A stretch of DNA of 64,000 bases from Bispira polyomma (taxonomy: Eukaryota), in the NCBI GenBank assembly GCA_965649765.1, contig OZ287756.1, forward strand, positions 61,194,001-61,258,000, written 5' to 3'. Positions 2,045-53,035 of this stretch are shown piece after piece. Position 1 is the first letter of the stretch. Every line of letters begins with the position of its first letter. The translations under genes and the position numbers were made by a program. Below the pieces are notes generated by a model. The model had not been told where the DNA came from and ran no database searches. It worked only from the letters and a program-made list of their open reading frames with translations.

Positions 2045-2247
2045 TTGATATCACGACCATAAAAGGGTCTGGTGCTTCAGTTGCCCCAGTCTTTTAAATC
2101 TTATAAACTACCTTAACCCCTGGCGACTGAGCTGATTTATTTCGCTTTGTCTATCCAGCCATACATTCAGTCAGTTCTTTGTTTAACTCCCTCCTAAAAT
2201 TCGCCATTAAGCTTTCGACACTGAAGCACACACACAGGAAAATTTGC
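2045..2247 (+). repeat. Split direct repeat A1 (5' terminal)
   Basis: Near-identical to 7369-7586 (gatatcacgaccata...cacacacaggaaaa); A1 lacks about 14 nt (gacaatgcatttt) present in A2. Confidence 0.95.
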
Positions 2248-2363
2248 AAATAGGAAATCCAAGTTGTTCTTCGTTATTTTATGGACTTTTTACTTTTATT
2301 AATGTTTTATCCTGTTTTAGTGAAGTAACATTGTAGTATTTTATCTGGATAATTATTAAAAGA

Positions 2364-3601
2364 ATGGGAAAACCTAAGAAGACGCCTTCTGATGAGGCTC
2401 GGGTCAAAACTATAACATCTAAGAAAAGCAGCGTTCGTGTAAAAACATCAAAGAAGAAGATCACTCAGGGACAGGTAAACGACAGTATACTCAATATTCT
2501 TCATTTGCCGCTATATCCAGAGAATGCTATCCAGTACGCGTCTCCACAACTCGGCCAACAAGTGCCCACGGTCACGGCTAATCATACTCATCCTCTCACA
2601 GCTCATGGAGCTGCCCCGTCTTCGACACAAGCCAAAACTAATGTGATGCCAGCTATGAAGGCTATGTTTGAGAGACTGGAAAAATCCAACAGGGTCATTA
2701 ACCAGAGATTGGACAGGATGGAAGCACGCGAAACGTCCCATTCGACTCCCGTTGTGTCATCCAGTCAAGATATTTACAAAAACAGGCCAGCTACAACGGC
2801 TCCATACATACCTCTAGCTGCTGCTCCAGCACCCATATTACAGACACAAGAGCGTTCGTTCCAACATGTGGACTACTCTAAGGAAGCCATTGTCCTCAAG
2901 AGGTAGACGTTTTGAAATCTATCCCTAAAGGCCCGGCAATTGTCAACCAAAGGCTGGCTGAGTACGAGACCCAGGCGCAACGTACTCTCTCACAAGGTAA
3001 GCCAGTCAGACAAAAATCAGGGCATTTCAATAGTACCGACATACCGACTGCTGATCCAAAACTCAGATGGCCCAACGAAGGCTGGGTGGGCGGGACAGCT
3101 CGTAAGCGTCCCACGTTTGATGAATTATCACTCCCACAATGGGCAGCTGGTCAGCTGTCCAATGCCATGCAGGTCAACGACTCGGAAACATCACAGGAAA
3201 TGGTCCAACAAGTCATTCTCTCATTAAAGGATGCCGCTTCTTTCTCATGGGATGTAGTAAGAACGTCATGGTTGTATAACATGCATGAAGTCGAAGAAGG
3301 CAGGCTGCAGTGGGGCGACAAAACGCAGTGGGCCCTCAACCGGATGAACGCTGCGCAGATGGCCATGGCCAATCCAGCCCATTCACACAACTCCCACGGC
3401 TCATACAAACCACAATCGGCCAGAAACATTTGCAAGCTCTTCAATGCTGGTAAATGCACCAACAAGTCGAACCACGGCCAATACCGACACATATGTTGGC
3501 ACTGCTCCACTGTTCTGCACAAGGAATCGCTCCACCCAGAATTCAAGTGTTATAGGGCTAACTCTTCCAAACAACAAGAAAGTAAAACAACCAGTAACTA
3601 G
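2364..3601 (+). pseudogene. gag-like ORF of the YR retrotransposon (frameshift near 2900)
   Basis: ORFs 2364-2906 and 2912-3601; Lys-rich N-terminus; C-terminal Cys/His fingers (CKLFNAGKC..NH, HICWHC..HPEFKC); clearly homologous to 42560-44726. Confidence 0.85.
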
Positions 3602-4536
3602 GCCAATAACCAACAACCAGGTGAAGGAACATTGGAAAGGAATTGTAAGATTTTGAATGTTTCAAGTGATGATAGTAATAGTGACATTAACAATATAGTA
3701 GCTTTAGATTTTACCAGTAATGATAACAACAGTAATACAAAGAGACCAAAACTTAATGGCAGTACAGCCACTAGAAATGACTTAAATATGATGAAATTAG
3801 AAAGTAAATGTGTTAACAAGATGTGGGTTGGCCATAAGTCTACCAATTTTTAGCTGGACAAGAAACCCAGCACCAAGTGTGACTACAGTATATTTAATTA
3901 AATTGTATGATAATAATGTAACTATGTCTTACAAAGTAAGGCAACAAAATATGTCAATGCAGATTCAGCTTATATCACTAATACGTGTGATGTGACAATT
4001 CAGGTGACAAATTGGTCATATTGTTTTGCAGATTCTTTAGAAATGTTGCCTGTGATTTCATATTAGATCCATGAATGGGGAAATTACCGGTTTCTTCATA
4101 CAAAAATCAAACGCCACTGGTCAAACTTATGACTATTTAAAATGTGATTTCTTACCTGAGGACCCTATTTGGATTACACAAACTATACAAACTTATGTAT
4201 ATGTTACACACATTTATGGTAACTTGGAATCTGCTAGTTCTACTATTGAGATAGTTACTGTTGGTGACATGTCACCAAAGGAAATGTTGGCAGATCAGCA
4301 AAAAGACATTCTGTCACTTAACAATTATGGGTGTAATTACAGTGATTACATCACAGATATAATTAATCAAATGCTGGGTGACAATGATGATAGTCACTTA
4401 GAATCCACTGATCAGTTAGTAAATAATACAAATGTAGCAAGTGTGGATAGCACACAGGGTAATGTCTTGACACTACTTACCGACTGCTCGGAACACGGTT
4501 CACCATCCTAGAAACAAGAATGTCACTGACATTAAC

Positions 4537-6222
4537 TTGCCTGATAAAAACAATGGTTTCTTGGTGCTGTCTGACACCAATTTTACTTTTACAGGCCCAG
4601 ACAGGGCCCCTGTTTTAATTTCATCTTTTGATCAAATGGTCACAATTGCAACCATTATTAGGGATTCAGGGTGCCCCAATTATAGAGGAGCACGTATTCA
4701 ACTAAAATCTGGCTTAAACATTGATCAATGGGAAAAAATTTTAATGGATCACCCAGATAAATTATTACTCCAGTACTTGAAATTTGGCTTCCCTCTGTCT
4801 TTGGATGACCCTACTTCATTAAATACAGGGAAGGCTACCAATCATCATTCAGCATTACAATTCAAAGGCGCAATTAGTCAATACCTTGAGAAAGAAAAAG
4901 CCAATGGTGCCATGTTGGGCCCAGTTAAGGAAGTACATAGCGAGTTATACCACTGTTTGCCCCTCCTCACTCGACCAAAGGACTTAAACAAACGTCGGGT
5001 TATACTCAACTTGTCATACCCACAGGGAAAATCGGTTAACGATAATGTCAACAAACAACTATTCGACAATATTCAGTTTGTACTTAAGTTTCCCACTATT
5101 GATGACATAGTCGACAAAATTCGTCAAACCAAAGATGCTAGGATATTTAAGTTGGACGTTTCCTGGGCGTTTCGAAATTTGCGGGTTGATCCCATTGACG
5201 TACTCAAACTAGGCATATGTTTTGAAGGTGGAAAGTACGTGGATCCTGCGGTTGCGTTCCAGCGTTCCAGCGATGCTCTGACATGATAGCTTATGCCATG
5301 GAAAAATTAAACCACCAAATATTCTGTTATATCGACGATTACGTCGGTATATCAACTAGTGATACAGCTGAGCAAGCGTTTCAAGATTTATATCAATTAG
5401 TCGATTCTTTAGGCCTCCCTATCAATTGAGACAAGCTCTCAACTCCTGATACCAGGGAAACTTGCTTGGGCATAGACATAGATATTGCTGAGGGCACTAT
5501 TAGTATAACCCAAGACAAAATCGAGGACACTCACCAGTTATGTGTGGAAATTGTTAAGAAGCAATGGATATCTAGGGCCAAATTTCAGTCCTTATTAGGC
5601 AAACTTCTATATGTCCATAAGTGCGTCAAACCTGCTAGGGTCTTCATAAACAGACTCCTCATGGCCTTTCGAGGTAACTCACAGGCGAAACAATTTAAGA
5701 TTACAGAGGCCATGAAGGCTGACATTGCATGGTTTGTCGTTTTCCTTAAGCAATACAATGGAATTACATACATTGAGAAGTTTGACCTTGAAACTAACAT
5801 TATATACATTGATGCATGTTTAACAGGTGTAGGAGGCATCTTCAACAACCAGGTCTACGCCTCTCCCCTTTACAATGTATATGATCGCCAACTTTCCATT
5901 GTACACATCGAGATGCTCAATATTTTAATAGCACTTAAACTCTGGAGCGAACAGTGGGTGCATAGTACGATTAGAATATACTGCAACAACATAGCTGTGG
6001 TACTAGTCGTTGGTTCAAACAAGACTAAGGATGATTTCAGCACAATATGACATTGACTTACAGATTGACCATATTAAGGGTGAGAAGAACTGTATAGCAG
6101 ACGCACTGTCCAGAATATACTCTGGCCATTATTCAGATAAGGAAAGAAACATACTGTTAAAACAAGAGTTTGTGTGGCATCCTATCCAACTTCACTTTTT
6201 TAACTTTAACATTATTATGTAA
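4537..6222 (+). pseudogene. Reverse transcriptase / RNase H (pol) of the YR retrotransposon, disrupted
   Basis: LKFGFPL, RRVILNLS, KLDVSWAFRNL, YIDD at 5328-5339; RNase H motifs IYIDACLTGVGG, HIEMLN, HIKGEKNCIADALSR; split over ORFs 4537-5286, 5466-6050 and 6010-6222. Confidence 0.93.
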
Positions 6223-6243
6223 TTTCAGGCCACACAAGCATTC

Positions 6244-7181
6244 ATGGATTCAGCCTGGAGTAGACTGAAAACTGCTCTAAGACCAAAAACTCTGGCAGCT
6301 TACAACAATCAGTTTAAGACTTTTCTTGCCTTCAATGTGTTTGCTGGCACTCAGATTATAACCACACACGTGGTCATAACTTTCCTAGAATACTTAGTAC
6401 AAAATGGGACTTCCACAGGGGCCATTAACAACTACTTAGCAACCATTAAGTTTATGGCAAGAAAATATTCCTGGAACATTTTTGAAAATAACACTGTGGC
6501 TATGTTCTTAAGAAGTTTGACCCACAATTCCCTTTTCAAACCCCAACCAAAAGGAATATTTGAAATACACCATCTAGCACTCATCTCCAGACCTTGCAAC
6601 ACACTTACTGATCCTATATTATATAGGGCAATTTTTCTCCTTTCTTTCTTTGGTTTTCTTAGAATTTCAAACATCGCCCCCCATTCTAAAGCCCAGTGTG
6701 ACAACACACGTCAGTTGTTAAGGAAAGATGTCATTTTAGGTCCACCAGGAGCCCATGTGATACTGAAATGGGCTAAAAACTTACAAACCAGGGGGGAAGT
6801 ACACATAATTCAAATCCCTTTATTAGACAAAAACCTCTGCCCAGTTAAGGCCTTACAGCAGCTTCTTACCTCCAGGTCACTCCCAGATACCCACTGTTTG
6901 TTGGCTGCACACCTCCATATGAACCAATAATCGACACACACATACGTTCTGCCCTGGCATCTGTTCTGACATTTGCTGGGATTCCTCAAAAATATCACAC
7001 TTTCCACACATTTAGACGTTCAGGGGCTTCATATGCATTCAATAACAATGTATCTTTACAAAATATAATGTCACACGGACTGTGGAGGTCTTCAGCTGTC
7101 TGGACATACCTTAAGAAAACTTCACAAGCAGCCTCCACAGTTTCCCTCACTTTTGCCTCCTTCATACCTAAATTTTTATAG
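6244..7181 (+). pseudogene. Tyrosine recombinase of the YR retrotransposon (frameshift near 6895)
   Basis: FFGFLRISN (catalytic R), LKWAKNLQ, LCPV; after the frameshift the sequence reads FHTFRRSGAS (HxxR), HGLWRSSAVWTY (catalytic Y), stop at 7179-7181. Confidence 0.93.
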
Positions 7182-7188
7182 TTTGGCT

Positions 7189-7368
7189 TGGGTCTTTTAA
7201 AAATTTATTTTACAACTTTTAACTCTACTTTTAACCCCCTTTACTTGTAAATAAGATTCTAACATGTACAGAAATAAATATCTCAAACTAGAAGTATTAT
7301 ATACTTTCCCCTGAACACACCACTTCATATACTTGAACTTCACCTATCTTACCAACTTGGGCAAACTG
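7189..7368 (+). repeat. Split direct repeat B1 (internal)
   Basis: Near-identical to 8276-8454; directly abuts A2 (gggcaaactg|tagatatc). Confidence 0.95.
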
Positions 7369-7586
7369 TAGATATCACGACCATAAAGGGGTCTGGTGCT
7401 TCAGTTGCCCCAGTCTTTTAAATCTTATAAACTACCTTAACCCCTGGCGACTGAGCTGACTTATTTCGCTCTGTCTATCCAGCCATACATTCAGTCAGTT
7501 CTTTGTTTAACTCGACAATGCATTTTCCCTCCTAAAATTCGCCATTAACCTTTTCGACACTGAAGCACACACACAGGAAAACTTGC
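7369..7586 (+). repeat. Split direct repeat A2 (internal)
   Basis: Copy of 2045-2247 with a few substitutions and indels. Confidence 0.95.
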
Positions 7587-8275
7587 CCACCACCTCCTCT
7601 TACCACAGCAAAATTAAGGGTCACTTCAACTTACTCATGGTTCGAACTGGTTGTAGTCCGCCCACTGGGCCGTGTGGGGGGTGGATACAGTCTACTTTAA
7701 CCCACCCCTGAGCATCACGTTTAGGGAGCCAGGGTGGAATATGGGCTCTGAGATGCTGGATCTCCCCTTGCCAGGCGGTAGGTGTCCAAGGCCCACGGGG
7801 CCGACTCCAATCAAAACAAACCAAGAGCTAAACTAGTTAAATATATTACGTTTTGAACTCGCCTATAGGGTAGAGAATTGAATTTCGGCTAGTCCGGTTC
7901 ACCTTCACCACTTGTACATACAGTGGATTGTATATGACATACTAATAGCAACTCAGTAACGCAAACGCGGATACTGTTTCTACTTGTCTGTGGCCCAGCC
8001 ACATATAAGACTGTCTTCTTGCGGTATTATCATTATGGTCGCTTAGAAATTTGTGTAGAAAGCACCATCATGGTATTACAGTATTGTAACATTATATTTA
8101 CTGTCTTGATACAGGTTACTGTATGGGTGCACTACTACAAAGACACCCAATAGTTTACATAATTATTCTTTTTAACTGCAGTTTTATTTAACTGTTGTGT
8201 TGTGTAATTGCTTAGCTCATGTATTAGTGCATTATGATATAGGCACTGTTATGAATGTTATGTTATTAATTGTGA

Positions 8276-8454
8276 TGGGTCTTTTAAAAAAAATTTTACA
8301 ACTTTTAACTCTACTTTTAACCCCCTTTACTTGTAAATAAGATTCTAACATGTACAAAAATAAATATCTCAAACTAGAAGTGTTGTATACTTTCTACTGA
8401 ACACACCACTTCATATACTTGACCTTCACCTATCTTACCAACTTGGGCAAACTG
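8276..8454 (+). repeat. Split direct repeat B2 (3' terminal)
   Basis: Copy of 7189-7368, ending gggcaaactg. Confidence 0.95.
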
Positions 8455-9090
8455 ACTATAAAATACATCAAGCATTAAATATTGGCCAGAGTTGACATAG
8501 GTAAATGACATGTATCACATCAATATATGTAACAATACATAAACAAATTTACACAAGATAACCAGCCCCTTTTATGGGCTTATATGTCACTATGAAATAC
8601 ATAAAGCATTCAATATTGACTAGAGTTATTCCAAATCAGTTCAATATACAAAGCAACTTGCTTAGATCATCAGATGAATTAAAAAAATCAATATTACAGT
8701 TCTGATAATTTTCAAAGAAAGTGTTACGTCCTATTTCATAAAATTCACACTGACACAAAAACTGTATTTCATTTTCAATTTGATGTTCATTACATACTAA
8801 ACAATATCTATCATTAACAGGGATATGGTAAAATGGACCCACTTCAATAGCTAAAGGTAAAATTCCAAAGCGCAGTTGCGACACAAGTGATCGCTGTGAC
8901 CTAGTGAGAGACAATTTCAAATAATTTTCAGTTTCTATATCTTGTTTAAATTTAACAAAACTTCTAAGTTTTGGTTTTGATGGTATTTTTCGACTCCAAT
9001 CATAATGCATAAGATCATACAATCGGTCTTTTGCCTCTTTCAGATTAAAACACTGTCCCTTAAAGATGATATTTTAAAGTGATAGAATTT
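8455..9090 (-). mobile_element. 5'-truncated non-LTR retrotransposon (ORF2 C-terminus plus 3' UTR with a tandem duplication of about 125-135 bp)
   Basis: ORF 8636-9022: PKLRSFVKFK...LRFGILPLAIEVG...RYCLVC...ENEIQFLCQC, resembling the C-terminal Cys-rich region of LINE ORF2; clade not assigned. Confidence 0.8.
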
Positions 9091-15822: not shown

Positions 15823-17086
15823 TTGACAAAAGTTAGAACAGAAGCCACAGATATTTGCCCGGCCTGTCTCTGAAACACGTAAAGGATTAATACTGTTTGG
15901 AGTAAACATTGCCTGAAAATTTTGGCAAAGAAGAATAGAAAAGAATATGCAAATACCTATATTGGTGATGATACAAGTGATAGTCAAACAATTTAAGCAC
16001 TCAAGCTAGACAAACAAGATGAATATATATATTCAAACCTAAGTAGAGTTACAAACTAATAAATGTCAAAGCTAGTAACATTAGAAAAATACTGAAGTTC
16101 CAAAACTTGTGTCAATCTGTGTTGCTAGTTCACAGCATGAATCAGAAGGTTTATTGGTCGAACTGGTGATCTCATTAATGTCATTGCAAGTGACAATATT
16201 TGAATCTTAAGATAGCCAAGCGAACGGCCAACTAATAGACGTTTGCATTCACTGTCATCATTACAGAATGAATGAGATATATACTACCCGTGAAAATGAC
16301 AATATATATATATATAATGCACCCCCACATTTTTCCTTATGACCTGGCGATGTTTTTTGTTTGGGTAATTGGTTATTGTTGGGCTTTAGAAATGTAACTA
16401 TAAATGTGTGTATGTTTGTGTGGAGTCCTATCCTTATCAATTTCAATATAAAAATACTGGTTTGGAAACTATTCCGGTTTTATTCTGCTAGCTTGGTTGA
16501 CACACTTTAAAAAACTCATCTTTCTTTTGTTCCCAGTCATCTAACTTGTATATAAATTAATATTTATGAGTATGTTAAACAGTTAAATACCCAAGCAGGT
16601 AATGATAAACATTGGGTGCATTATGTACACCTTTAGAATACTGCTGTTATGACTAAGCACATTATGACTTTGAATACTACAGTTTATACTCAAATATCAC
16701 CTCTATTGATTTCTCAGCCGATTTTACAGTTTACACCCCAGCCTGGGTTCTTCCACTTTTCAACCAATTGTTCAGTCTCAGCTCCCCCAGGAAGCATACT
16801 AGCTCACAACGGATTTACAGAGCGTCACATTGACACAAACCCCAAAGGCGTCTCCAAAAGGGAAAGTCTTTTGTATGCAAGGAGTTAAAAATACATGTAA
16901 CATGTTTTTTAGCTGTGTTTGCTCATAAAGTTTTATCGTTAAAATTACTTCCCAATCAGTAAGTAAAATTCTCATTTTGTATTAATCTTCTTTAACCAAT
17001 TCTGAACTTTTTGTATGTAATTTTTGTTTACATTCCTTGTTTACGTTTATATAAGTATTATGTACATATATATACAACTATTCTAG

Positions 17087-18086
17087 GTGTGTAGATGCAT
17101 TGCTACAAAACGGAGCCAATCCAAATCAAAAGTACTTTCTGGGCCACGAAATCACACTGGTCCCACTGCAGAACACCAGAAGCCTTGATCTAATGCTCAA
17201 ATATGGCGCTGACCCAGACGTTTTTAACCGAGCTGGTCTGTCCACTCTGATGCGAGCTTCGAAACAAGGCGCAAATGACACAGTCAAAGTTTTACTGAAA
17301 CACGGTGCCAACGTCAATTTGCAGTGCCCCCCGAAATTCGACCAAAAGACAGCCTTGCATTATGCCTCCATGGCAGGCCACACAGACATATGTAAACTCT
17401 TACTGGACGCGGGTTCTCAAACTAATGCACCACCTGACTTTCGGTATGCACCCATTGATTTTGCAATCACTCAGGATCACTACGATGTGTGCAAGCTGCT
17501 GCTGGAGTATGGCGCAGACGCCAATGAGATCAACGGTGATAGCTGCTCACCACTGCAAGTGGCATGCACTGCATTCGGTCTAAAGAAGCGCAAGGATATT
17601 GTCGAGGTACTTCTTCGACACGGTGCCGAGCCGAACTACAACAGTGGCATATATTCCTACATCGGCCCGTCGCTGAGTCCCATCGTCGAGTACTTCACCT
17701 ACAACGGCGAAGACTATGACTATAGCCTGGTCAAGGCGCTAGTGCAGCACGGCTCCAGAGTAAACATGCGCCTGCCCACCAGGCTTCTCAAAATCAACGA
17801 CGCCTATGGAGTATTGGGCCAGGTGCACAAACTGAGGCCTTATGAGGACATGCTGAGGTTTCTGCTGGACGCCACAGGGGATTTTGATCTGGCACAGATC
17901 GAAAAGGAAAGCTCTCTCTCCAACAGGCAGAAAGAACTGCTTCTTGAGATGGCCACAGAGCCCAGGACCTTAATGCATCTCACTCGCGGTACCATCCGCC
18001 TCATTTTGCAGCCACCAATTTACAGCAAAATAGACCTGTTGCCTTTGCCCAAATTTTTGAAGGATTACTTATTCTTCAGTGTGTAG
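17087..18086 (+). CDS. Ankyrin repeat and SOCS box protein, terminal exon (whole protein about 481 aa)
   Basis: ttctag| acceptor; several ankyrin repeats (TALHYASMAGHTDICKLLLDAG); C-terminal SOCS box PRTLMHLTRGTIR...IDLLPLPKFLKDYL. Confidence 0.93.
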
Positions 18087-21749: not shown

Positions 21750-22585
21750 TCATTCAATGCCAAGAAGTTTTCCTATTGTCAGCAACTTAAAAGCATCACA
21801 CCTTTTACACTGGTACATCTTGGCACCTGCCAGATGGTCTCCTGAAGTCTCGCAGCCACTCCCAATAATTGTTGCTTCAAAATTTGGCCAGCTGATGTCG
21901 TCTTTGCGGCGTCTAAAGGTTGTCAGCGCAGCAGGGCAGCACACTGTCTTGGACAAGGACGTTGACATAACAGTGTTGACCTCACCCACAATGGCCCTGC
22001 TCTGCCTCAAGTCTTCGTTCTCACTTTCGATTGCCTTGAGTTTGGTTTCGAGATATTCCACTTTGGCTTTTGCATCCAGTTCTTCGTAGTGGCTTTTTTG
22101 GTAGCACTGTTTCTTAACTGGGAGAAGTCCCTGTTCAGCAGTTCTTTCAGGCAATTGCTGTAGAGATGTTCCAAGTCGTAGATGCTTGCAAAAGAGAAGA
22201 GCAGCATGGAGGCGGGCAGTTTCACCAAGATGACTCCACACCTCTGCCGTAGGCCGTCACAGCAGTACTCGTGGGCCAGAGGTAAGATCTTAAACACATT
22301 CTTGTCATCCAGGGGCTTCCCTATATGCGTCACATTAATGAATTCCATAATATCCTCATGGGACTTTAAGGGCAGTGGTATCTTGCTCTCGTGCGTCTCC
22401 TTTAAGTTCCGCTCGAACATCGATTTAAACACAGGCGAGATCATACTCAGGCAGATTTTGCTCGCCAGCAACTCCTTCCCTTCCACCTCAAAGGCGATAT
22501 CAGCAAATTTAATGATCTCATCGCACTGCAGTTTCCCCGACAGGTCAACACTAGTCTGTGAAGCCAGCTCGTTTAACCCCTCCAT
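21750..22585 (-). CDS. BTB/POZ-domain protein (paralog 1), frameshifted at an A6 run; pseudogene or sequence error
   Basis: FADIAFEVEGKELLASKICLSMISPVFKSMF...ILPLAHEY; acceptor tttcag just upstream of 22605; homology to paralog 2 continues only after a frame change at 22094-22099. Confidence 0.8.
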
Positions 22586-23223
22586 TTGTGTGTGGTGATT
22601 GTATGCTGAAAGCAGACAGAAATATAGTACAACCTGTGTTATATTACCCTAAAATATAGTTCACTTTGCCAGATTAAAACAAAATATGTTACTTTGGTTT
22701 AAGATATCCATGGAAGTTATTGTTTAAAATATTCTTGACTTTGGTTCATGAAGTGATGGGGATTGGCAAATTAAAATAAAATATTTTCTTCAGTTTAAGA
22801 TTTCCACTTACGGAACTTTTTTGGTTGATAAAAATATAGATTACTTCGGAAAAGAAACATGTGCCTGTGAAAAATAACAAAGTGATTTCGTACAAATTAG
22901 GCTGGTCTGACTTTGTAGAAAGCACTGATAGGTACTTCCAGATACGGATATTTAACTGGCTTTGAGCTTTGACTCAGGAGAAACATATTTTCTTTTATAA
23001 ATATCTTGCATATCTTAAATAGCCCTTTCTGAGAAATGTTCTATATTCTACTCTATACTATGAAGCTATAGCTTATACTATGAAGCTATAGCATTTTACT
23101 GGATACTAAATTTGGCATGATTATCAGGTTATCGGTTATAACTAACATGTAATTATAGTTTAATCACCTGGGACCGTATTCACAGAAAGGTCTTAGCCTG
23201 AACTTAGTCTTAACCTTAACATT

Positions 23224-23464
23224 AGGGCCGCGATGGCCTAGTGGTTAGCAAGCATTGCGCTTCACAATCACTGGTCTCTCACCTCTGGGCGCCTATGATG
23301 CCTATGTGGGAAAGATGGTAGTTCCTTAACTGTGGGCCGCTGGTTTCACTGTAGAACGTTAATTAACTGTATGCAGTGTTTCCTCCAGCGTTTCCAACTA
23401 TGTGTCCCAATATAACCTTAACAGCAACTAAAGTGGACATTAAATATCTAAATTCAAATTCAAA
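23224..23464 (+). mobile_element. tRNA-derived SINE, family 1 (internally deleted)
   Basis: A-box tggcctagtgg, (aaattc)n tail, 14-bp TSD ttaaccttaacatt (23210-23223 / 23465-23478). Confidence 0.9.
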
Positions 23465-28725: not shown

Positions 28726-29326
28726 TTATTTGCCATATGAAGATGAACTAGTAATTGTCTTGGGTACTTGTACCTCTATAGTGGCTTCCAGATAGCCTAG
28801 TTTGGCTTGCAATCCTAGATTATCATATATCGGTTTTTCTCTTGCCATTAGGCTGTGATACGCCTCTTTTGGGAGATCTTCCAGACATTTCTTGCATAAC
28901 TTTGTAAGGCCATATTTATCTGCCAGAGAGTACAAAAGTAAGGATTTCTTTTTCTTCAGCAAGACTTGTTCACACTTCTCCAGTAATGGCTGGCAACTGT
29001 ACTCGTGCACAATTGGCAAAATGCCGAACACATTGGCAAGCGTTATGTTTCTGTGTAAATGGGTGACCTCAATGAATTCCAGAAAATCATCATACTTCTT
29101 ATCTGGTAAAGGGATTTGGGATATTCCTGATTCCCTAAAGCAGCCTTTGAGCATATTCTTAAACATCGGGGAAATCATACATAATATTGCCTTAATGGCA
29201 ACCACAATTTTGCCTTCAACTAGAAATTCAACGTCCCCATTATCCAGTATCTCTGGTGACTGTGTTTTGGGTAGGACTTTCTCTTCACTGGAAGGTTCCT
29301 CGTCAACTGATGTTGGCAATGATTTC
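28726..29326 (-). CDS. BTB/POZ-domain protein (paralog 2), main exon; upstream coding exon not identified
   Basis: GDVEFLVEGKIVVAIKAILCMISPMFKNML...ILPIVHEY; acceptor ttttag at 29327-29328 (phase 2); intact reading frame. Confidence 0.85.
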
Positions 29327-30816
29327 CTAAAAACAAAATATGGTGCTTATACAATACACTAAAAGTGGACATTTACTTATTCCTAATATTAACTGCCTTG
29401 GTTATCCTAGTAAGAAAAAATAAAAATATTTAACCGAAAATGTACTGCTTGTGAACCGCGTGCTAGCTCCCTCAGTTCACGAATGGTAATGAGGCATACC
29501 TTTACAGATGCTTATATAGAAAAAGTGTAAAAATAGTTTAAGAGGCAGATGCATTTGATTGTATTTGAGTATGGTGACCTCGCCTTAACTCCAGCCAGTA
29601 CGATCGTAAATAGCACTACAGGGTTTTAGGTATGTGTTTCTAAATGCTACATCACCTTAGTACAACATTTTAGCAAAAGCTATTAACCCTTGACGACCTT
29701 GTCCGACATCCAGCTACGGCCATTTTTATTCGCCAGTGCTATGTCCATCAGCCAGCAGTCAGCAGTATATAATATTTTAATGGTTCTTGTTCTCAATACA
29801 ATTTTATTTACCCTTTTTGCACAATTTAAACCCCACAAAAACAAAAGAAACATGTCGGGCTGGCAAACCCCAATCAAAGTTTAGTTACAGAGTCTCATAC
29901 ACAGTATGAGTAGAAAACAAGAATACAAATTTAGCACATGTGACCATTTCTCAATTTCAGATTACAACATTATTTTATGGTAACATAAATTATGAGTTAA
30001 ACAGATTTGCAAACACTGACTATGATTTGCTCAACTTTTTGAGCAGATATTTACCCTTGCATTCCCAGATTGCACATTTAAGAATATAGAATTTTCCCGT
30101 CATGTAAATAACATTTATGGGAATATTAGTTATATCAGATTCCCAAACTCCAAAGATCAATGAACTGACTCAACTAAGATTTTTTTTTGCTCCAAAACTG
30201 CAGACTCTATTATTATATAGCTCCCTCAGCACACAGTAATACCATATATGTAGTATATTACTTTTAACGTAAAATTTAAATATATGTTCTAATTTGTGAG
30301 GTAATAAGTAGTAGCAAAAACATTATCTGTGACGTCAGGAATGTAGGTCAACGTATTCTCCCTTAGCATAGTACAGTTACTCTCCATCGGCAGCGAAGTG
30401 GTTAAGAAACCAACTTTCAGGTTAATATATTGTATTGTCTGTTATTTCTGTTGTTTTTTAAAGAAAACATTGTGGAAATGCTAGAGAGTACATAGCGTAC
30501 ATGAACAATAATCATTTTCAAACTTCCTGGAAGCGAGATTGAAGTATTGTCAGTTACTGATATAAAAACTCTTAAAATGGGGGTTGGCCAAGAATTAGAG
30601 TGGCTTTGATTACACAAAATATGGTATATCAGCTTTGTTTACAAACAATAGGACACTGATATTAATGTAAAAGTGAAATGATCTGAATTTAAAAATATAT
30701 CCAGTTTTTTTACGGCCAGCCTTCTGGTGTTGGCAAAGCTGCCGAAAAATCTTACATTATCACCCATCAAGTGTCAAGAGTCATATCTGTTTGGTTTTTT
30801 TTTTTTTTTTTTTTTT

Positions 30817-30928
30817 AATTTGGATATTTAACGTCCACTCTAGTACCTGTTTAGGTTATATTGGGACGGGTAGTTGGAAACGCTGGAGGAAACACTGCAT
30901 ACAGTTGATCAAGGTTTTGCACTGAAAC
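30817..30928 (-). mobile_element. SINE family 1, 3' fragment
   Basis: Near-identical to the 3' parts of 41623-41874 and 37939-38085; adjacent poly-T. Confidence 0.9.
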
Positions 30929-37469: not shown

Positions 37470-39595
37470 CCAAACAACAACCGAGTCAGCAAAGAACTAC
37501 TGGCCAAGATCAGGCTGACAAACAACTACTCAGACAAATCAACCAAAACCCAAAACTCCAAGCATTAAAAACCTGCCTACAGACAGATCACTAAGGAAAT
37601 CCAGACAGACCTTGCCAAAGAAAAACAAGAACGACAAATCAGAGACTTTGACTCAGTTGACCCAAAGTGCAGCTCCACCTACTGGCAGAAGAAATGCAAA
37701 CCTACCGGCCAAGTAACTAAACCAAAACCACCCAAGCTCATGGCCCCTACCACAAACAGGAACATGACCACTTACAAAGAAATAGCTGAAACATTTGTCA
37801 CCAACCTCTCAAACACACACAGAACTCACACAGACACATACGCCAACAACACACACAAGCAGAAGGTTGACTAATTGGCATACAACTACGAGGAAGAACT
37901 AACACCAAACACCACCGCTACCACTCCCTCAGACGAGGTGTTCCTTACTGTGGGCCGGTGGTTTCAGTGCAGAACCTTGATCAACTGTATGCAGTGTTTC
38001 CTCCAGCGTTTCCAACTACCCGTCCCAATATAACCTAAACAGGTACTAGAGTGGACGTTAAATATCCAAATTCAATACAATTCAACTCAGACGAGGCACA
38101 AAATCACAGATAAACCCAACCAAGCCAATAAACAACTTAAACTCAAAAATAGCTCTGGAGAAGACTATACCCCACACAGCCATACAAAACCTATCGACCA
38201 CCTCACTAACCACACTCAAACTCTACAACCTGTGCCTCATACGTCATTATTTCCCCAAGAGATGGAAAAATGCTATAGGGACCATGCGCCTCAAACCAAC
38301 AATAACCCTACAAGCTACCATCCAATAAGCCTCCTTAACTGCCTGGGGAAACTCTATCGAAAAACTAATCACTAGAAGACTATGGGAATTTATCGAAGAC
38401 CACAACATCATTAACATCTGGCAATGTGCATACCAACCACAAAAGGAAGCAACTGAACACATTCACATTATCAATGACGTCAAGAAGGCTTTTGACGCAG
38501 TGTGGCACAGTGGCCTCCTGAAGAAGCTACACAACCTAAAGATACCTCCTGACCTACTTTGTGTAATATCCTCATTTCTGACAGACCGCACCATACAAGT
38601 CAAGACTGGCACTTCCCTCTCAGACACAGTAAAACTACTAACAGGAACACCACAAGAAAGCATACTCCGTCCTCTACTTTTCATACTATAAATCAAAGAC
38701 TTTCCAATATCACCACCGAACCACTGCACACAATATGCAGATGATGTCTGAATCTACACCAGCAACAGACAAAAACACCTACAAAAACAGTTTCAATGTC
38801 AAATCAACACAATAGAAGAATGTGAGAAGTAGTACAAAGAAAGACAAAGAAGACGCAGCTCATCCTCTTTGCAAACAACAGACGTCAAAGATACATTACA
38901 GTTACAGTAAGGCAAAATAAGATTGAAAGCACAGAAGTAGCAACCGTACTTGGCACCACTCTATACCCAAGAATGAATCAACAAGCCCTCATCAAGAACA
39001 TCAAGGGTAAAATAGCAGGAAGAATGGAGCACCTCAGAGCACTGACCAACGGCGGAGCTCCAATACCTGCACTGAGTACTTTCTACCTAGCCACAATTTG
39101 ACCCGTGCTCGAACAAGGATACCACCTCACTCACAACCATGGACCCAGCCTCAAAGCCCTACAGAAACTTCAAAACAGATGCCTCAGAATCATTACCTGG
39201 ATGCCCAGCCACTTCAGAATGACACCTATATACAACCGATTGATGGTCGACAGAATACAACCACACTTGGAGGAATGCCACAAAAAATCACTCACACGTT
39301 ACAAAGAGTCAACTCTCCAGGAACACCTCAACACAGCTTTGCAGTACATGTGACCTTTTTACTTTAGGGCTAGCATAGCAGAGGTACCGTTCTACCACCC
39401 AGCGACAGTCCCAGCCTAACAAAGTACAGAAGCACCACCTAGCAAACCCTTCACACAGATGGGCACACAACTGTAACTACAGGGATAGAACTGCAGAGGT
39501 ACCCCTCTAACATCCAGGTGCTGACATGGCCTAAGTGGGAAGAGATGCAACACCCAGCTAACCCTGTACAAATAACTGAATATAACTATTTATAT
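37470..39595 (+). mobile_element. Degenerate non-LTR retrotransposon (I/Jockey-group-like RT)
   Basis: YHPISLLNCLGK, DVKKAFDAVWHSGLLKKL, GTPQESILRPLLF, YADD at 38734-38745; many frameshifts; A/C-rich strand. Confidence 0.88.
37939..38085 (+). mobile_element. 5'-truncated SINE family 1 inserted in the LINE
   Basis: 11-bp TSD ctcagacgagg (37928-37938 / 38086-38096). Confidence 0.9.
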
Positions 39596-39809: not shown

Positions 39810-40800
39810 ATTGTTTGTAAATTAGACTTTTTGTGTGGGCTTGGGGTCTCCAAGGTCAAAGATCTATTTGCTTTACAAATTTACTTACCAGTGTTAAAGT
39901 AAAGGGCTTGAAAACATAGAAAAGATCAAAAACATCAGCCTAAAAACCATTTACATTTTAGGTAGACTTAACCATGTGGCTGATATGTTATGAAGGTGGC
40001 AGCTAACCTCTGATAACAACAATAAATTATCTCAACTCATACCTAGACCAGTCTTGGTAAATGTGAAACACAAAATGCTAGATATAGATTGGTCTATCTA
40101 ATTCCAGATATTCCACCTTATCTAAGAGAGTTAATTCACCAAGCTTTTCGACTTGCCACAGAGAGAACTTGTTCAAACATGTTAGGAACTTTCTTGGCTT
40201 GCTGTTGTTTTGCTCAGGTAAGCCTCCACTGTATCTCCCTAGTATTATTAATGGCTTTCCTAGAAGTTTTGGTGGTGAATACTGTCTACTTCAATATGAA
40301 ACTATCTCTCATCTATCAATGCAAAATGGCTTTGTATGGTCTAAATGTCTCAGCTTTTTCTGATCCTAGGATAAAAAAATTATCAGAAAGCCTTGGTACT
40401 GAATAGACCATTTCGAGCTAGGATTAAGCAAATAATAGATGTACAACTATACAAATAATACAAGGCAGGTTTTTAAAGCTATATACCTTCTAGCTTGCTT
40501 TTACGTCTTAAGAATCTCCAATCTGGTCCGTCATGCAATTTCACAATATTAACCTCTAACACAACTGGCTAGAGGCAATGTTTCTTTAGGTCTCCACCTT
40601 ATAATAAAATGGAGAAACACAATGCAAACCAAAAATATGGCTAAGGTCCTGAAAATATTTAATAAGTTTAAGTTACTCAAATATCTGCCCAGTTGCAGCC
40701 ATTAGGCCCTTGCTAGCTATCACTCCTGGTAGCAAAGATGTAATACTTTGATTGTATACTGGTATGTAGATAGTAAGATAGCGAAAGAGTGTTCTAAATT
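39810..40800 (+). mobile_element. Relic RNase H end and tyrosine recombinase of a third DIRS-order element
   Basis: YILGRLNHVADML*RW (RNase H end), stop TAA at 40099-40101, then IHQAFRLAT..FLACCCF..LMAFLE and LRISNLV. Confidence 0.75.
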
Positions 40801-41622
40801 TTACTAAGGTTATCACTTTATTTACAATTACAATAGTAAAATAAAATAACATGTGGCTCACATTAAGTCTGTTCAATTTTAATATTCTCCCACCAAGAAT
40901 GAACCTTTAATAGTTTCACAATACCATAGTTCACAAAGCCCCTGACTTTCGTCCATAGTTCAACTTAAGATCTTATGCTGTCATAACTCAGTCCCAATGA
41001 ATAATTGTGCAGAGTCCACATGACACACTGAGTCTTGCTTCTACCACCATACACTGTTGCTCTGTGTAACCAACAAGATGGATGATTCTAGCAGCCTCAA
41101 TGACTCAGCCATAAAGTGCGTACTGCCACCACCAGTGCTTATAAAGTAAAGAATTAAGTGTTTTTACTATACTATTCATACAAGTGTATCCTTGTTCATG
41201 AAATACACACAATATTCACTATAATTCTACATATTTCCCTTAGAAAGTTGCACATTAACAGAATACCTAGTCTATATTGGATGAAAGTTTGTCAACCGAG
41301 CATAGTTTAAGCTCAATGTACACTGTATATAATCATTTCCAAGTGATGACAATTCAACTAAACATGCACTAAATTAACTAAAGCAGCATTTCCACATAGA
41401 GAATACTTAACTAGTAACAAAACATATAATTTAAATTGTAACACACTAAATTGTTACACAGCTTTGTTTCAATTTAATACAAATTTCACATGGCTTCCAA
41501 TCAGATACTAAAGTGTGTGTAAATCTCTCACAAATTCTTAAGCGTCTACGACTTCAAAATTCATCATCACACTTTTCAGCCACTCTAGCCATATCTCCGA
41601 TCATGACATACAGAGTCATGGC

Positions 41623-41874
41623 TTTGAATTTGGATATTTAACGTCCACTCTAGTACCTGTTTTTAGGTTATATTGGGAAGGGTAGTCGGAAACGCTGGAG
41701 GAAACACTGCATACAGTTGATCAAGGTTCTGCACTGAAACCAGCGGCCCACAGTAAGGAACTACCACCTTTCCCACATAGGCATTGACCGGATTCGAACT
41801 CACGCCGCCTAGAGGTGAGAGACCAGTGATTGTGAAGTGCAATGCTTGCTAACCACTAGGCCACTGCGGCCCCC
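41623..41874 (-). mobile_element. Full-length tRNA-derived SINE, family 1
   Basis: A-box TGGCCTAGTGG and B-box GTTCGAATCC on the minus strand; 14-bp TSD tacagagtcatggc (41609-41622 / 41875-41888). Confidence 0.95.
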
Positions 41875-42119
41875 TACAGAGTCATGGCACATGGACACCT
41901 GACTGTATGTGGAAGTATACTACTGATCGAAAAAAACTCAACACTTTACACGAGCTCAACTGTAAAAAGTAATGTTAGTAGTGTTAACATAGTGGTAGTA
42001 ACTACATGTCAAGCATGCTGATATCCATAACACTTGAAGTATAAAAGGAGTAACCATTGATTTAATAATACTAGTAATATATATGTTGAGTAAGTTTAAA
42101 TGACAGCAAAACATGTTAC

Positions 42120-45096
42120 ATGATATCTTTTCAATCTGGTGTTCCCCTGGACTGTGTTAAGGCTGTCACCTCTGTGTGGGTTCGCCTTCAACAAGTGACA
42201 ATGCTGTGGGCCTGTCTCAGTATGACCCTGGCTGTAAACGGGAGGTAAAACCCTAAACTTGGATTTAAAACCCATATATTTCACTTACCTTAAGCGCATT
42301 ATTTTACACCTATATGTACCCAAAAATTGGTGTATCAGCCTAACTACCAACTACAGCCCGCACACTTTCTGTTTGGGCTTCCCTTTTATAGAATCCATTT
42401 TGAATATTTTCATTTCAAGCTTCTATGTCAAAGAGCAAACAAGTGGGAAAAATATTTTCAATATGTGAATTGAAATATACACGGTTTTAATTTTTAAAAA
42501 TTCATTTGTTTATATAAATATATACTTGTTACATACTGACATTTATTGAGTGTTTCAGAATGGATAGAACGAAGAAGCCTACAAAGACGAGTACAGTCAA
42601 GAAATCAAACAAGAAACCTTTGTCCACGAAGCGCTCCAAAAGAGGTAGTCAGGTATCACATGCTAATGTTGAGAACCTTAACGGTTCATTGCCTGCAGTA
42701 GCGGGCCCCTCCAGTACTCAATACTCGGAAAATACTGACTCTGTATACCATCAGAACGAGACTTCGCCTATAACATCTTCACAGGGGCCTCTATTAATGC
42801 CGGGTTCACATGTAGCTGACCAGAATTCTGAGATGTTGGCAATATTGGTTAGATTGGAAGCATCTAACGTTGAACTATCTAACCAATTGACCAAGGTAGA
42901 GCAGACAGCAGTCACTAGTACAGCTACACCATTCGTGGCCTCTACTTTAGGATCTGTATACGGACACACATTTACTCAGGTAGCACCCACAGCATCACTT
43001 CCTGTAGGCCACCCATCGCTGGTTTGTATGGACAGACCACGTCCTCGTTACCACCTCCCGTAGTTACACATCACAGTCTAGGGTTTGTTTCTTTACCAGC
43101 CAACGCCATGGCTGCAAACGTGCCACTACCTCTGGTTGGAGGAATTCCGACCTATAAAGTGAGCTTTCGCCATGACATCTCGGCTCCTACACACCCTACC
43201 CACACAGGGACTGAATTTCAACGGGACAGCATTGTGCCGAACTTGGACACGTTATGTTCACTGCCTCACGTCCAGGCAGAAATCACTAGACAGTTGGCCC
43301 AGTACACTGCTATGGCACAGCGAGACCTTTCACAAGGTAAGCCATCATAAGTCATGCCAGTTTAACAGCACAGATGTGACCACAGCAGATGCCAGATTGC
43401 ATTGGCCTAACAAAGGCTGGGTAGGAGGTTCTTCCAAGAAGAAACCGGCTTTCGACGAGTTATCTATGTCACAGTGGGCTGCAGGGCATCGCTATTAATT
43501 CCAGATGCCGACGAGATGAGGGACATGATCTGACAAGTAATCTCTTCGCTTAGGGATGCTTCGTCTCTCCCTTGGCCAGTCGTCAGGACAGTCTGGGCCC
43601 TCAGCATGCACATGATTGAAGAGGGTAGGCTGTCCTAGAAGAACGACACCCAGTGGGCACTTAATAGGTTAAGTGCTCCCCAAATTGCCATGCTAAATAA
43701 TAGTAACTTCAATAGTGTGTTACGGTCACGGGAACAAGCACAGTAGCAATTACCAGTTGCTTTTAGGTTGTAACCAGAAAAGACAAAAAGTTTCACTTAA
43801 CAAATTTATTTAACAAATAAAATAACAATTACAGAATTACAGTCAACTGAGATACTCTTATTAGTTCATACAATAATACAATAATGAAACCAATCTGACC
43901 TGACCACAGTCCTGTCCATATAAATAACAATTGAACAAGTTTGTCCACTGTATCCAGCAATCTGTCTTGAGATCCGCTCAGTGTCCACACAATGCCTGTA
44001 TCCTGTTATCCGTTCTGTGTCCACAAACACAAAATATATATATCCAGAGAGTCTGCACAACTAAGCTATCTAGTCCAGGATGCAAACAATACCCAATATG
44101 CAGTAAATCCAATCTCTGGTATATCCACAACTTTTATCTAGTTCACTCCAATGAGTTCACCACAAAAACATTTTTAGTAATCAGTTTACATCCACAGGAA
44201 AAGAAATAAAACGTTTCACAGTATAGCAGTTCGTATAGCACACCAACTCAATAAACTCTGGTCTGTGGCCAGGCTGTCAACCCTTATATATACAACTGCT
44301 AGAGAAGGCTCTGGAATATGTAAACAATTGCTAGAACATTCCAGAGATGAGATATAAACATATTAACACAACTTTAATAACAACAGAAACAAAATAGAAC
44401 CAGTTTCTAGAAGCTTATGGGTTTTCCCAATTCTATAAATAGATCACTCTAGCAGAGTGCTTTAACATACCACAATGTCCTTATATGTAACAAGTGTGAA
44501 CAATAACAGTGATTCCAAAATTATTTGTAGATTGTACAATAATGGTAAATGCAGTCACAAGACCAACCACAGCAATTATAGACATATTTGTTGGCATTGT
44601 AGCTGTACCATAGGGAAAGATTCCAATCATCCCGAGTTTAAATGCTATAAGGTGAATAGCAAGCAACTAGACAGTCAAGCAAATCAAGGTAAATCAACAA
44701 CAAGGGAAACGAACAACGAGAACTAAAGTTAAAAGTAGAATAGTGATAGGCAATGAGATAAGGAATAATTTGAAGAGTAATAAAGAACTCAGATGTAAAA
44801 AGTTGAAGAAAATATAAAAGCAGTATATGATAAAAAGTGTATTATAAGTAATAATGTTTGTAGCAATGTTGATTTGTCTTGTTGCAGGAATATATCCCAA
44901 AATTGCAGATGAGGGCATTATGGAAAATTCTGTCGGGGCTAACAACAAACAAAAATGCAATTTGTATGCATATTCTGAATTTAGCGTTAAGCCCAGTCAC
45001 AATGGCCCCATACAGTACTTACAGGAACAACATATTGAAGATAGTCAGGCTGACAGTTTTCTTTCTGAAACTTTTGGGGAAGTTTTTACTATATGA
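42120..45096 (+). mobile_element. 3'-truncated Ngaro-like YR retrotransposon (5' repeat and gag), a diverged relative of 2045-8454
   Basis: Starts tgatatc...tctggtg like A1; gag 42560-44726 homologous (FNSTD..TADARLHWPNKGWVGG, CRLYNNGKC..HICWHC..HPEFKCY); interrupted by a solo LTR. Confidence 0.85.
43718..44492 (-). mobile_element. Solo LTR (Gypsy-like), about 775 bp
   Basis: TGTTAC...GTAACA termini; 4-bp TSD AGTG (43714-43717 / 44493-44496); TATA-like element at about 44283-44292 and AATAAA at about 43805-43810 on the minus strand; removal restores the gag frame (NSNFNSVNNNSDSKIIC). Confidence 0.88.
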
Positions 45097-45689: not shown

Positions 45690-47463
45690 ATAGAATGAAC
45701 CTGTTCGTAAAAAAATGTGACGTGGCAACTTTGTATATGTTTCTGTTCTCTTTCATTGATTTCTCCTTCTCCTCACAAGTCTCACACTGCTCCCTGTAAT
45801 GATGTACCTTGGCTAATCTCCCTGTTTGCTGGGGATCAAGGTTCTGAGCATTCTCCAAATTTTTCATGCAACTATGCATATATCCTGCAAGGCATAGCTG
45901 AAGGTTGACGAAATGCTTGACTCTGACACTTCCCTAATGAATTTGGTTGTCACTAGGTTAAATTTGTGATTGACATTCTGTTCTTGATCATTAATGTCTG
46001 GGGGAATAGTTGTGCTCCAATTTTAATACTTGCAACATTTTTTTGGATCAAGCTGCTGTAATATATGTGTGTAGTTGGTATAATTTCCTACAGGAATAAT
46101 TTTTTCATCCAGATCGATCGAGACAATGTACTGGTAGCGGTACATGTTGCGGTAAAGACAGTCATTATAGCCGGTTCTCTTGGCGATTTCGGCTGAAAAT
46201 CTCTGTGTTGGATTGATTTTCACGATCAATGGCACCTGGTGGTATAACAGTAGTAACCTTTGTCTTGGTAAAAATCTAGGACCTTCTGGTAATTGGCACT
46301 CACTTGCATAGTGCCATTGTACACATTGAATTCAGTGATACCAAACAGCTTGTTCATTTCTATCCACTCCACCATCCAGCGGGCCTCCTTGTCACCCATG
46401 TAACCAAACGACATCCGGTTGGCAATACACTGACCGAAGATATGAGTAAAGGAGTCCTGCTGCTTAATGTATGTCACCGGTAAATACAATGTCAGCTCAC
46501 CACTGCGGTAGATGGTGTTGAAGGAAATAGGTGAGACCCTGTATTTCAATTTGACGGGAATGGGGCAGCTCATCAAAAGGTTGTAATATGTCTTGTTGTT
46601 GACAACAGGTTTGAATCCAGGAATATCCAGTCTATTAAACACAGAAGTACTGACCACAGGGTGTAAGCTGCCTTCTGTCCACAAACAACAGAACGCTTTC
46701 TTCTTCAAAACCTGCCAGCTATTAGTCTCAAGAAGTGGTAGCCTGGAGCAGGAAGCACAGCAAAAATATGTAACTAATATGATGTTATCAGTGACATCTA
46801 TTAATTGACTATATATTTCCAGTTTTATATAAGTGGATGTAGTAATGCAAAATTGCACACATACAAAACATACATGTATCGAAAGTTTCATAACTCTAAA
46901 GAATAGAGCATTTTGCCGATTTTGGTTCTCAAATATGAAACCACTTATTCCATAATGTAGGTTCAAATCCTTGTGGTTGTAATGAGCTACTCACTTTTTA
47001 TATTTAATTTGGTTTACCTTTTCCCTATTGTCTACTCCAAAAGGAAAATGTACATTGACATCAGTCATTCTTAGGAACAAGTGCATAGCTTTCATGATGG
47101 ATCATTATGAACACATAAAAACAATAAAAAATATTTATTATTATTAAGTTTATTTGCGATCCATCCCTAAAATAACTTCTATTTGCTGGACATGAGGTAG
47201 TAAGGGTAACACTCTTGCACCTTTCATTACAGTTATGGGTTTGACTGTCGACACAGAGTGAAAAAGTTGGCGGTAGATTTGTTGCAGGCCAACAATCCTA
47301 TACTGGTTTTTACCATCTGTAAACTGCCCGCCGTAAACTGCCCTAAGCATTTTACACATCCATACCTGCATACTGTTTCAGTTATTGTCATTGGCTTATC
47401 ATATGAGTTGGAAAAGTGGTATAAAAATAAACATAACTTTAATCCTAGCAGATACTTATACAT
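45690..47463 (-). pseudogene. Glycosyltransferase family 92-like (beta-galactosyltransferase-type) pseudogene
   Basis: VEWIEMNKLFG, YNDCLYRNMYRYQYIVSIDLDEKIIP (DxD) and KVHHYR motifs spread over three frames with stops; hydrophobic N-terminal segment at 47463; probable intron 46743-47220. Confidence 0.8.
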
Positions 47464-47636
47464 CTTTATTTCTGCAGGAAATTATGTTAAGGTTATGTTA
47501 ATGTTTTTACTTCTATAGCGCCACAATCGATAACCAGACACCCTCTGTGGCACATATCCTACTAAATGTGCAAGAGCATTGTTGGGTAGACGGAAAAAAG
47601 TTTGTGATCAGAGATTCAGTATCTTACATTTTTTTT

Positions 47637-47848
47637 AATTGGGATATTAACGTCTACTCTATGACCTGTTTAAGTTATATTGGTACAGGTAGTTGGAAAT
47701 GCTGGAGGAAACATTGTATACAGTTGATCAAGATTCTGCACTGAAACCAGCGGCCCACAGTAAGGAACTACCACATTTCCCAATTAGGCATTGATGGGAG
47801 TCGAACCCACGCTAGCCGATCCAAGAGGTGAGAGACCAGTGATTGTGA
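47637..47848 (-). mobile_element. SINE family 1, 5'-truncated
   Basis: High similarity to 41623-41874. Confidence 0.9.
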
Positions 47849-52477: not shown

Positions 52478-53035
52478 ATGGAGGCAGTATTAATGAAAAG
52501 GTTTTTTGTGATGCTTGTCATATGTCTAACTTTACTAGTTGGGACACTATATTTCAGATTTAGTAAAGACTTGTCACAATTGATACATATTAAAAAGGCA
52601 AGAGAAACAAAAAATATACACATGATTTCTTATCCAAAAAAAGATTTGCAAATTCCAGCACACAAAAGAATATTTCAAATTTTGTATTGGACTGGGTCAT
52701 CAAAAGGAAGTCATAGTCCAAGGAACTGGTTTGGCCTTGGGTCTAAACCCTTTGATAAATGCGAGTATAGAAACTGTAACCTAACCGGGGACCGATCAGA
52801 CTACAACAATTCTGATGGAATACTGATCTACATGCGCTACGCCAAGCCATTGCCGACATACCGGTTTCCTTGGCAGAAATGGATAATGAGGATACATGAA
52901 TCACCAGCCAACGAACGGGACTACACAGAATACAATGGGGTTTTCAACGCCACATGGACTTACCACACCAAATCGGACATTTACTCCCACATTTACTACA
53001 GGCAGTTTGTCAGCAAGGCAGATGGAGACATCACG
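52478..53035 (+). CDS. Alpha-1,3/4-fucosyltransferase (GT10), coding exon 1
   Basis: ttacag|caccATGG; type II membrane anchor; ILYWT, CEYRNCNLT, QKWIMRIHESP, FNATWTYHTKSDI; donor ACG|GTAATA (phase 0). Confidence 0.92.

Follow-up and report, generated by a model that had tools for sequence, protein, structure and literature searches.

Positions 2047-8454 of the DNA analysed here (the window, 64,000 nucleotides (nt) of the Bispira polyomma genome, contig OZ287756.1, positions 61,194,001 to 61,258,000) hold a decayed Ngaro-like tyrosine-recombinase (YR) retrotransposon, as classed from layout and domain content. The family to which this element belongs keeps a splice donor in the middle of gag, D2, together with a phase-matched acceptor past the end of pol, and probably expresses its recombinase, fused to the N-terminal half of Gag (GagN-YR), by way of splicing, while Gag itself and, through readthrough, Gag-Pol are probably made from unspliced RNA. 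As judged from sequence comparison, D2 and the YR acceptor are conserved well beyond chance or protein-coding need, and they are the only phase-matched donor and acceptor in the element that are so conserved. That D2 is joined to the YR acceptor is, in my estimation, likely.

An initial annotation of the window had proposed that YR is translated from a spliced RNA that borrows the start codon of gag, by joining a donor near that codon (D1) to the YR acceptor, and that Pol is translated from a second RNA in which D2 is joined to an acceptor within pol (site A2). D1, D2, site A2 and the TAA-TTTCAG ending at 6228 are all present in the window copy at the positions and in the phases it reported. 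Site conservation upholds the core of the idea, a YR that borrows the Gag start, but not the pairings with D1 and with site A2. The annotation had suggested asking whether the GT and AG dinucleotides and their phases are conserved: they are at D2 and at the YR acceptor but not at site A2, while D1 (CAG/GTA at the exact site and in phase 0, a slash marking the cut) is kept in 8 of 14 subfamilies.

A donor in mid-gag and an acceptor beyond pol

Relatives of the window element are numerous in the host genome (1.04 Gb, 75 contigs), and a search with YR gave 13,293 first-look candidates. The comparison set consisted of the window copy and 94 further 10-kb stretches of the same genome, which formed 21 clusters that were merged into 15 subfamilies at roughly 55-76% nucleotide identity. 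Codon use was compared in 14 subfamily representatives, subfamily 11 (a single copy) being omitted.

The exact D2 word, CAAG/GTAAG, was found in 75 of the 89 anchored copies. Of the rest, one has the exact word but runs into the edge of the search window, the site is deleted in four, and the GT is kept in seven and lost in two; overall, the GT is kept in 83/85 copies. The glycine codon at D2 is the sole codon-invariant column (GGT, 14/14) among 266 residue-conserved columns of four- or sixfold degeneracy, and its neighbours are CAA in 14/14 and AAG in 13/14 representatives. Across the alignable regions of gag, pol and YR, no other strong donor is conserved: D2 has a mean score of 5.9 against 4.2 for the next best; the gag N-terminus and the 5' leader are not alignable and were handled separately. 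When an unbroken Gag was modelled with AlphaFold (predicted local distance difference test score 67.6, predicted template modelling score 0.39), D2 lay in a low-confidence linker right behind helix 190-212 and before the C-terminal helical domain and the Cys/His knuckle. A fold search with this model gave no match at E 0.001.

At the other end of the predicted intron, the acceptor AG is kept in 81/84 copies, and when the YR starts of five subfamilies were searched for genome-wide, 137 of the 140 matches had a YAG in front of them. The acceptor occurs as TTTCAG, TTGCAG, TTACAG or TTTTAG, so that the AG is constant while the residue in the YR frame varies (Ser, Ala, Thr or Leu). In all 14 representatives the T share upstream of the acceptor lies at the 88th-99th percentile and 16-64 bases are free of AG (the D2 cell of L124 and the A2 cell of L108 were not used in comparing upstream tracts). 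The Phe codon of a TTTAAY/TTTGAA word, which is branch-point-like, is likewise invariant there. A host exon boundary in the window, placed from open reading frames (ORFs), ends in the same TAATTTCAG/GC as the element acceptor; it is the likely acceptor of ORFs at 52421-54603 that are presumably fucosyltransferase-like.

The phase of the acceptor points to its partner. From the AG to a conserved YR tryptophan the distance is 38 nt (phase 1) in 78/81 copies, L050, L111 and two window rows being excluded from the count. In the window copy this distance is 27 nt, versus 38 nt in 7/7 of the closest relatives checked. On this comparison, phase 0 at 6228 is private to the window copy and results from an 11-nt deletion just 3' of the acceptor. 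Since the family acceptor is in phase 1, its in-frame partner is D2 (2996) and not D1. A third relic in the window, in which the initial annotation had recorded TAATTCCAG in phase 1, thus follows the family norm.

Relatives from other sources and intronless copies

A metagenome contig with 44% YR identity (L155, one of 96 candidate stretches) carries AAG/GTAATT in phase 1 at the gag codon homologous to D2. The corresponding codon of its YR has TTTTGTAG, also in phase 1 and 330 nt past the pol stop; its gag and pol lie in one frame across TGA. Among the 120 YR homologs listed from other assemblies, most of which are called from later starts, 21 show xIS(G/D) where YR begins, 19 of them with the same spacing; GK stands at the D2 position in 17/19 Gag homologs. 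Several of these YR homologs are called from M-I-S-G. No annotated Gag-YR fusion was found among the 120 listed of 309 YR homologs or among the 19 Gag homologs, which are apparently plain ORF calls.

A search for processed, intron-less copies gave no match ending at D2 among 40 scored candidates and 0 matches for each of two short junction patterns, a result of little weight because a spliced RNA need not be copied. One stretch considered as a spliced copy, L061, was rejected, as the ends of its deletion lie off the splice sites. Contigs of runs X1-X3 (type unrecorded) cover every one of the 30 bins. Among the joints listed (15, beside which there are 75 more), not one falls at D2, site A2 or the YR acceptor, which speaks neither for nor against splicing. 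A joint between both A repeats (L033:2665/8021) is present in contigs of all three runs; it is a deletion by A1/A2 recombination, resembling a solo long terminal repeat (LTR).

Readthrough of the gag stop as the probable source of Pol

In unbroken copies, gag, a single TAG and then 947-1015 pol codons form one frame. The stop is TAG-G in 76/82 copies and in 14/14 representatives, that is, an in-frame UAG followed by G, which the accessible part of PMC3159437 describes as the type III readthrough context; the pol stop itself varies (TAA in 11 representatives, TGA in 3). From the TAG to site A2, 325-454 codons are open as against 15-71 stops in the other frames (8 copies), and the first pol Met shifts between codons 16 and 117 (8 copies), leaving no conserved Pol start. 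The initial annotation had named a continuous pol ORF from the end of gag with a start of its own as evidence that would refute it: the continuous frame exists, the conserved start codon does not. Conserved coding motifs occur 5' of site A2 and across it; a ratio of nonsynonymous to synonymous differences (pN/pS) of 0.48-0.81 5' of A2 is weak evidence, because the alignment was protein-guided and pS is near saturation. The 325-454 residues encoded there (window 3602-4594 and its equivalents in L124-L147) contain a conserved motif block T-N-W ... P-V/I-I/L/V ... G-F-F/Y; this extension gave no Pfam hit, and no protease is evident. Beyond the stop, at 10-19 nt, the word CRA-CNR-CYA-G (window 3611-3620) is kept across subfamilies despite residue exchange, which makes it a candidate readthrough signal or weak acceptor. 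Taken together, the alignments favour readthrough of the in-frame UAG as the origin of Pol, although with less assurance than they do the YR splice.

The alternative that survives best accepts the splicing of YR to Gag but has Pol spliced as well, either from D1 to the AG of the gag stop (phase 0) or from D2 to the YAG at +19 (phase 1). The TAG/G at the stop doubles as a perfect YAG/G, the phases match, and the +19 YAG is kept in 64/73 copies even though Leu/Pro and Gly/Val/Ala/Asp exchange there. Neither AG has a T-rich tract, however (0th-65th and 0th-55th percentile, respectively), and other AGs often lie just upstream. The +19 AG is moreover absent in subfamily 19 and mostly absent in subfamily 10, its spacing to the gag stop always keeps the frame, and L155 has TGA where the gag-stop AG should be. 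Splicing of Pol at either place is thus unlikely.

Can YR be made without splicing?

YR lies in the -1 frame and overlaps the end of pol by 4-16 nt, an arrangement that would suit a second alternative: YR is translated by -1 frameshifting, by stop-start reinitiation or from a promoter inside the element, the sole role of D2 being to recruit the U1 small nuclear ribonucleoprotein and thereby protect the full-length RNA. A U1 role of this kind is described for the donor of the EVD Copia element in the available portion of PMC5580714, and the calls from M-I-S-G in other assemblies would fit it. In L135 and subfamily 14, an AUGA stop/start overlap at the pol stop provides an in-frame YR Met just upstream of the acceptor, which would also suit reinitiation. 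The pol/YR overlap, however, contains a slippery heptamer in 3/14 representatives and an AUG in 1/14; L155 keeps its phase-1 acceptor despite the 330 nt and the stops between its pol end and YR; and the invariant AG, the T tract and the phase match receive no account. Production of YR without any splice therefore seems improbable. The first YR Met lies at codon 9 in 6/14 representatives and at codons 26-79 in 8/14; the SAM-like domain match begins at YR residue 16-21, so that in these eight the Met falls within or past that domain.

D1 and site A2

The complete scheme of the initial annotation, with a short basic leader joined to YR through D1 and a foamy virus-like spliced Pol from D2 to site A2, is a shade less probable still. 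Each of the two joins keeps the frame in the window copy, and a donor-like site occurs 79-111 nt past the gag ATG in 10/12 representatives versus 13% of 50-nt windows, a contrast to be read knowing that the range was chosen after D1 had been seen and that the representatives are kin. The D1-to-YR join owes its frame to the window copy's 11-nt deletion, however: D1 is in phase 0 in the window subfamily and its kin, and, apart from the window copy, no copy of that subfamily has it in frame with the YR acceptor. Elsewhere a different donor-like word stands near D1: subfamilies 3 and 12 have it in phase 0, whereas in 13-16 it is in phase 1 and so matches the YR acceptor. The short leader proposed for YR hence fails in the window subfamily but has left a trace in subfamilies 13-16. 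D1 may be a U1-binding site whose phase is irrelevant, or the source of a leader-YR form in subfamilies 13-16.

Subfamilies 5 and 7 have a T-rich site A2, and across the family the site has an AG in 64/81 copies and a YAG in 51/81. It nevertheless lacks the AG in subfamilies 12, 18 and 19 and has only AAG in 3 and 13, it is spanned by a coding motif, and the codons upstream of it stay open as far as the gag stop. It is therefore not the conserved acceptor that a foamy virus-like Pol would need where the reverse transcriptase (RT) frame begins, and the spliced Pol of the initial annotation gives way to the continuous pol frame.

A last reading, on which all these motifs simply reflect what the proteins require (Q-G-K, I-S-G, F-T-F-T-G) in an AT-rich genome, is very improbable. 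It holds for site A2 and can point to the residue invariance of G214, the D2 glycine, but D2 being the 1 codon-invariant column of the 266 largely refutes it; the position of the acceptor past the end of pol, in a stretch scarcely open in the YR frame, also speaks against it.

The proposed expression programme

In the programme that I propose, unspliced RNA would serve as genome and as message for Gag, and occasional readthrough of UAG on that RNA would yield Gag-Pol. Removal of a single 3.2-3.6 kb intron, from D2 to the YR acceptor, would generate a sub-genomic RNA that skips pol and in which the start-less YR is fused to the first ~210 Gag residues, giving a protein of ~540 residues in all. 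Its basic tail and predicted coiled coil might let GagN-YR co-assemble with Gag, which is conjecture. A tentative suggestion is that this portion of Gag, with its basic tail, predicted coiled coil and helix, directs the recombinase to the Gag particle or into the nucleus, a job done for retroviral integrase by the Gag-Pol fusion. I hold in about equal measure for and against the wider view that animal Ngaro elements follow a retrovirus-like plan of two RNAs, with the oligomerisation half of Gag grafted on YR so as to package the integration enzyme without a protease, and that a shifting second donor may give leader-YR in one clade.

Several points weigh against this programme. The case is wholly comparative. 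G214 is invariant as a residue too, so that the protein may account for some of the constraint. The subfamilies share ancestry and are hence not 14 independent trials, although their synonymous sites are near saturation (pS 0.5-0.8). The Met 9 codons past the acceptor in 6/14 representatives could start YR without Gag. The D1-like donors and the YAG 19 nt past the gag stop have no place in the scheme, and the broken window copy is itself unable to make the proposed proteins. With regard to readthrough, no conserved local RNA structure was found within ~80 nt of the gag UAG (the alifold consensus was empty; pseudoknots and distal elements lay outside the search), the gag stop of L155 is UGA-U and not UAG-G, and the gag-stop-pol junction of Tca2 alone did not direct readthrough, according to the part of PMC2194720 at hand. 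Homologs in other assemblies, finally, are known here from proteins alone.

Layout and class of the element

The features of the window are listed in Table 1. All three ORFs of the window copy are broken: gag is frameshifted near 2900, upstream of D2 as the initial annotation had remarked, pol has several breaks and YR is frameshifted near 6900. Several other copies have unbroken frames and repeats that are 99-100% identical, and dozens of near-identical open-frame copies point to recent bursts in several subfamilies.

Split direct repeats occur in the order A1 ... B1 A2 B2, with a spacer between repeats A2 and B2, and gag, RT/RNase H and YR lie on one strand with the repeats 3' of YR. No Pfam match to a methyltransferase was found in three full pol frames at E 0.05; pol ends ~35 residues past the last RNase H motif. 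The YR domain was recognized by PF02899 above cut-off in 3/3 proteins tested and by PF00589 in 1/3. The layout and the lack of a methyltransferase are the grounds for the Ngaro-like assignment. A PAT-like element was ruled out by that same lack, despite the split direct repeats, and a DIRS1-like element because neither inverted terminal repeats nor an internal complementary region was found: inverted repeats of at least 40 nt are absent from L135 and L147, and L130 shows only a flanking TA run. Repeats A2 and B2 are set apart by a spacer of 0.7-1.1 kb (window 7586-8281; L130, L135, L147), and in L135 the B-A-spacer unit is tandemly repeated. In the second, diverged element of the window, D1 and D2 are present as the initial annotation had reported.

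Table 1. Positions of the element, its putative expression signals and related relics in the window
Feature	Position	Strand	Remark
Split direct repeat A1	2047..2247	+	5' end of element; layout shared by young copies
gag-like ORF1	2364..3601	+	Basic N-terminus, predicted coiled coil, helical segment, C-terminal helical domain, Cys/His knuckle
D1, donor-like CAG/GTAAAC	2472..2480	+	Phase 0; cut after 2474
D2, splice donor CAAG/GTAAG	2993..3001	+	Phase 1; cut after 2996; in gag at a predicted domain boundary
Predicted intron	2997..6228	+	Second half of gag and entire pol; proposed from site conservation
gag stop TAG-G in pol frame, then CRA-CNR-CYA-G at +10 to +19	3599..3620	+	Candidate readthrough signal; conserved
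pol ORF	3602..6222	+	N-terminal extension outside any Pfam family, RT, RNase H, no methyltransferase
Site A2, Pol acceptor of the initial annotation	4575..4596	+	Phase 1 at 4594; a conserved coding motif, F-x-F-x-G-P-D-R, runs through it; no support for its being a required acceptor
YR splice acceptor	6196..6228	+	Branch-point-like TTTAAC, T-rich AG-free tract, pol stop TAA (6220-6222), TTTCAG
YR ORF	6229..7181	+	No conserved start codon
Split direct repeat B1	7189..7368	+	
Split direct repeat A2	7369..7585	+	
Split direct repeat B2	8282..8454	+	3' end of element, ~0.7 kb past repeat A2
Third relic, pol stop and acceptor TAATTCCAG	40099..40107	+	Phase 1 relative to its own YR frame
Second, diverged element	42560..44726	+	gag only, interrupted; D1 (42652) and D2 (43336) present

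Elsewhere in the window, host ORFs at 22007-22648 (-), 28726-29346 (-), 17055-18086 (+), 62150-63118 (-) and 46226-46990 (-) presumably resemble, between them, BTB-domain, ankyrin/SOCS-box, tyrosinase and glycosyltransferase proteins. Decayed RT fragments like those of non-LTR retrotransposons lie at 37500-39360 (+) and 8636-9073 (-), and a short repeat of ~120-270 nt is inserted at 23225-23458, 30809-30928, 37940-38080, 41622-41875, 47629-47848 and 53461-53720.

Comparison with known systems

In gammaretroviruses a large intron skips pol to reach the last ORF, and in foamy viruses Pol is made from a spliced sub-genomic RNA. The evidence presented here points, unlike the foamy virus case, to the recombinase and not RT as the spliced product. 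Since the donor lies in mid-gag, unlike that of murine leukaemia virus (MuLV), the product would be a fusion.

Ngaro elements have the same split repeats A1-ORFs-B1-A2-B2 and the same order of gag, RT-RNase H and YR, with no methyltransferase and no long ORF overlap, in the parts available of PMC8547959, PMC4157794 and PMC3266345. The present family differs in its 0.7-1.1 kb A2/B2 spacer and its 325-454-residue N-terminal extension of pol. Accounts of Ngaro elements give three ORFs, of which YR may be in frame or frameshifted (PMC3783388, in part); the conserved intron, the Gag-YR fusion and the gag-pol readthrough proposed here go unmentioned in the portions of these accounts that were available. 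No description of splicing or readthrough in Ngaro or DIRS elements was found in the literature covered, in part, here (including PMC7192593, PMC4495291, PMC6681497, PMC2632668 and PMC9341512); the founding Ngaro papers (Goodwin and Poulter 2004; Poulter and Butler 2015) lay outside its scope and may hold a prior mention. How a recombinase encoded by a separate, start-less third ORF is expressed and packaged is not accounted for in the available parts of that literature. The exact coordinates of a conserved junction, a predicted Gag-YR of ~540 residues and a readthrough site make this question testable. If the proposal is right, present annotations of such recombinases are truncated, and splicing is a possible point of host control over a young, recently active family.

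MuLV and other gammaretroviruses likewise have gag-UAG-G-pol in one frame (PMC3159437 and PMC4178896, in the parts available); here, by contrast, no 3' structure was found, the last ORF encodes the integration enzyme and not Env, and there are neither protease nor LTRs. In Tca2 of Candida, gag and pol are likewise in frame across one stop, but that is an LTR element and its stop is UGA (PMC2194720, in part). With respect to splicing, the plant Ty1/Copia element EVD uses conserved alternative splicing to set the ratio of structural to catalytic proteins, as far as the accessible part of PMC5580714 goes; the spliced RNA there yields Gag only, whereas here it would yield half of Gag fused to the recombinase.

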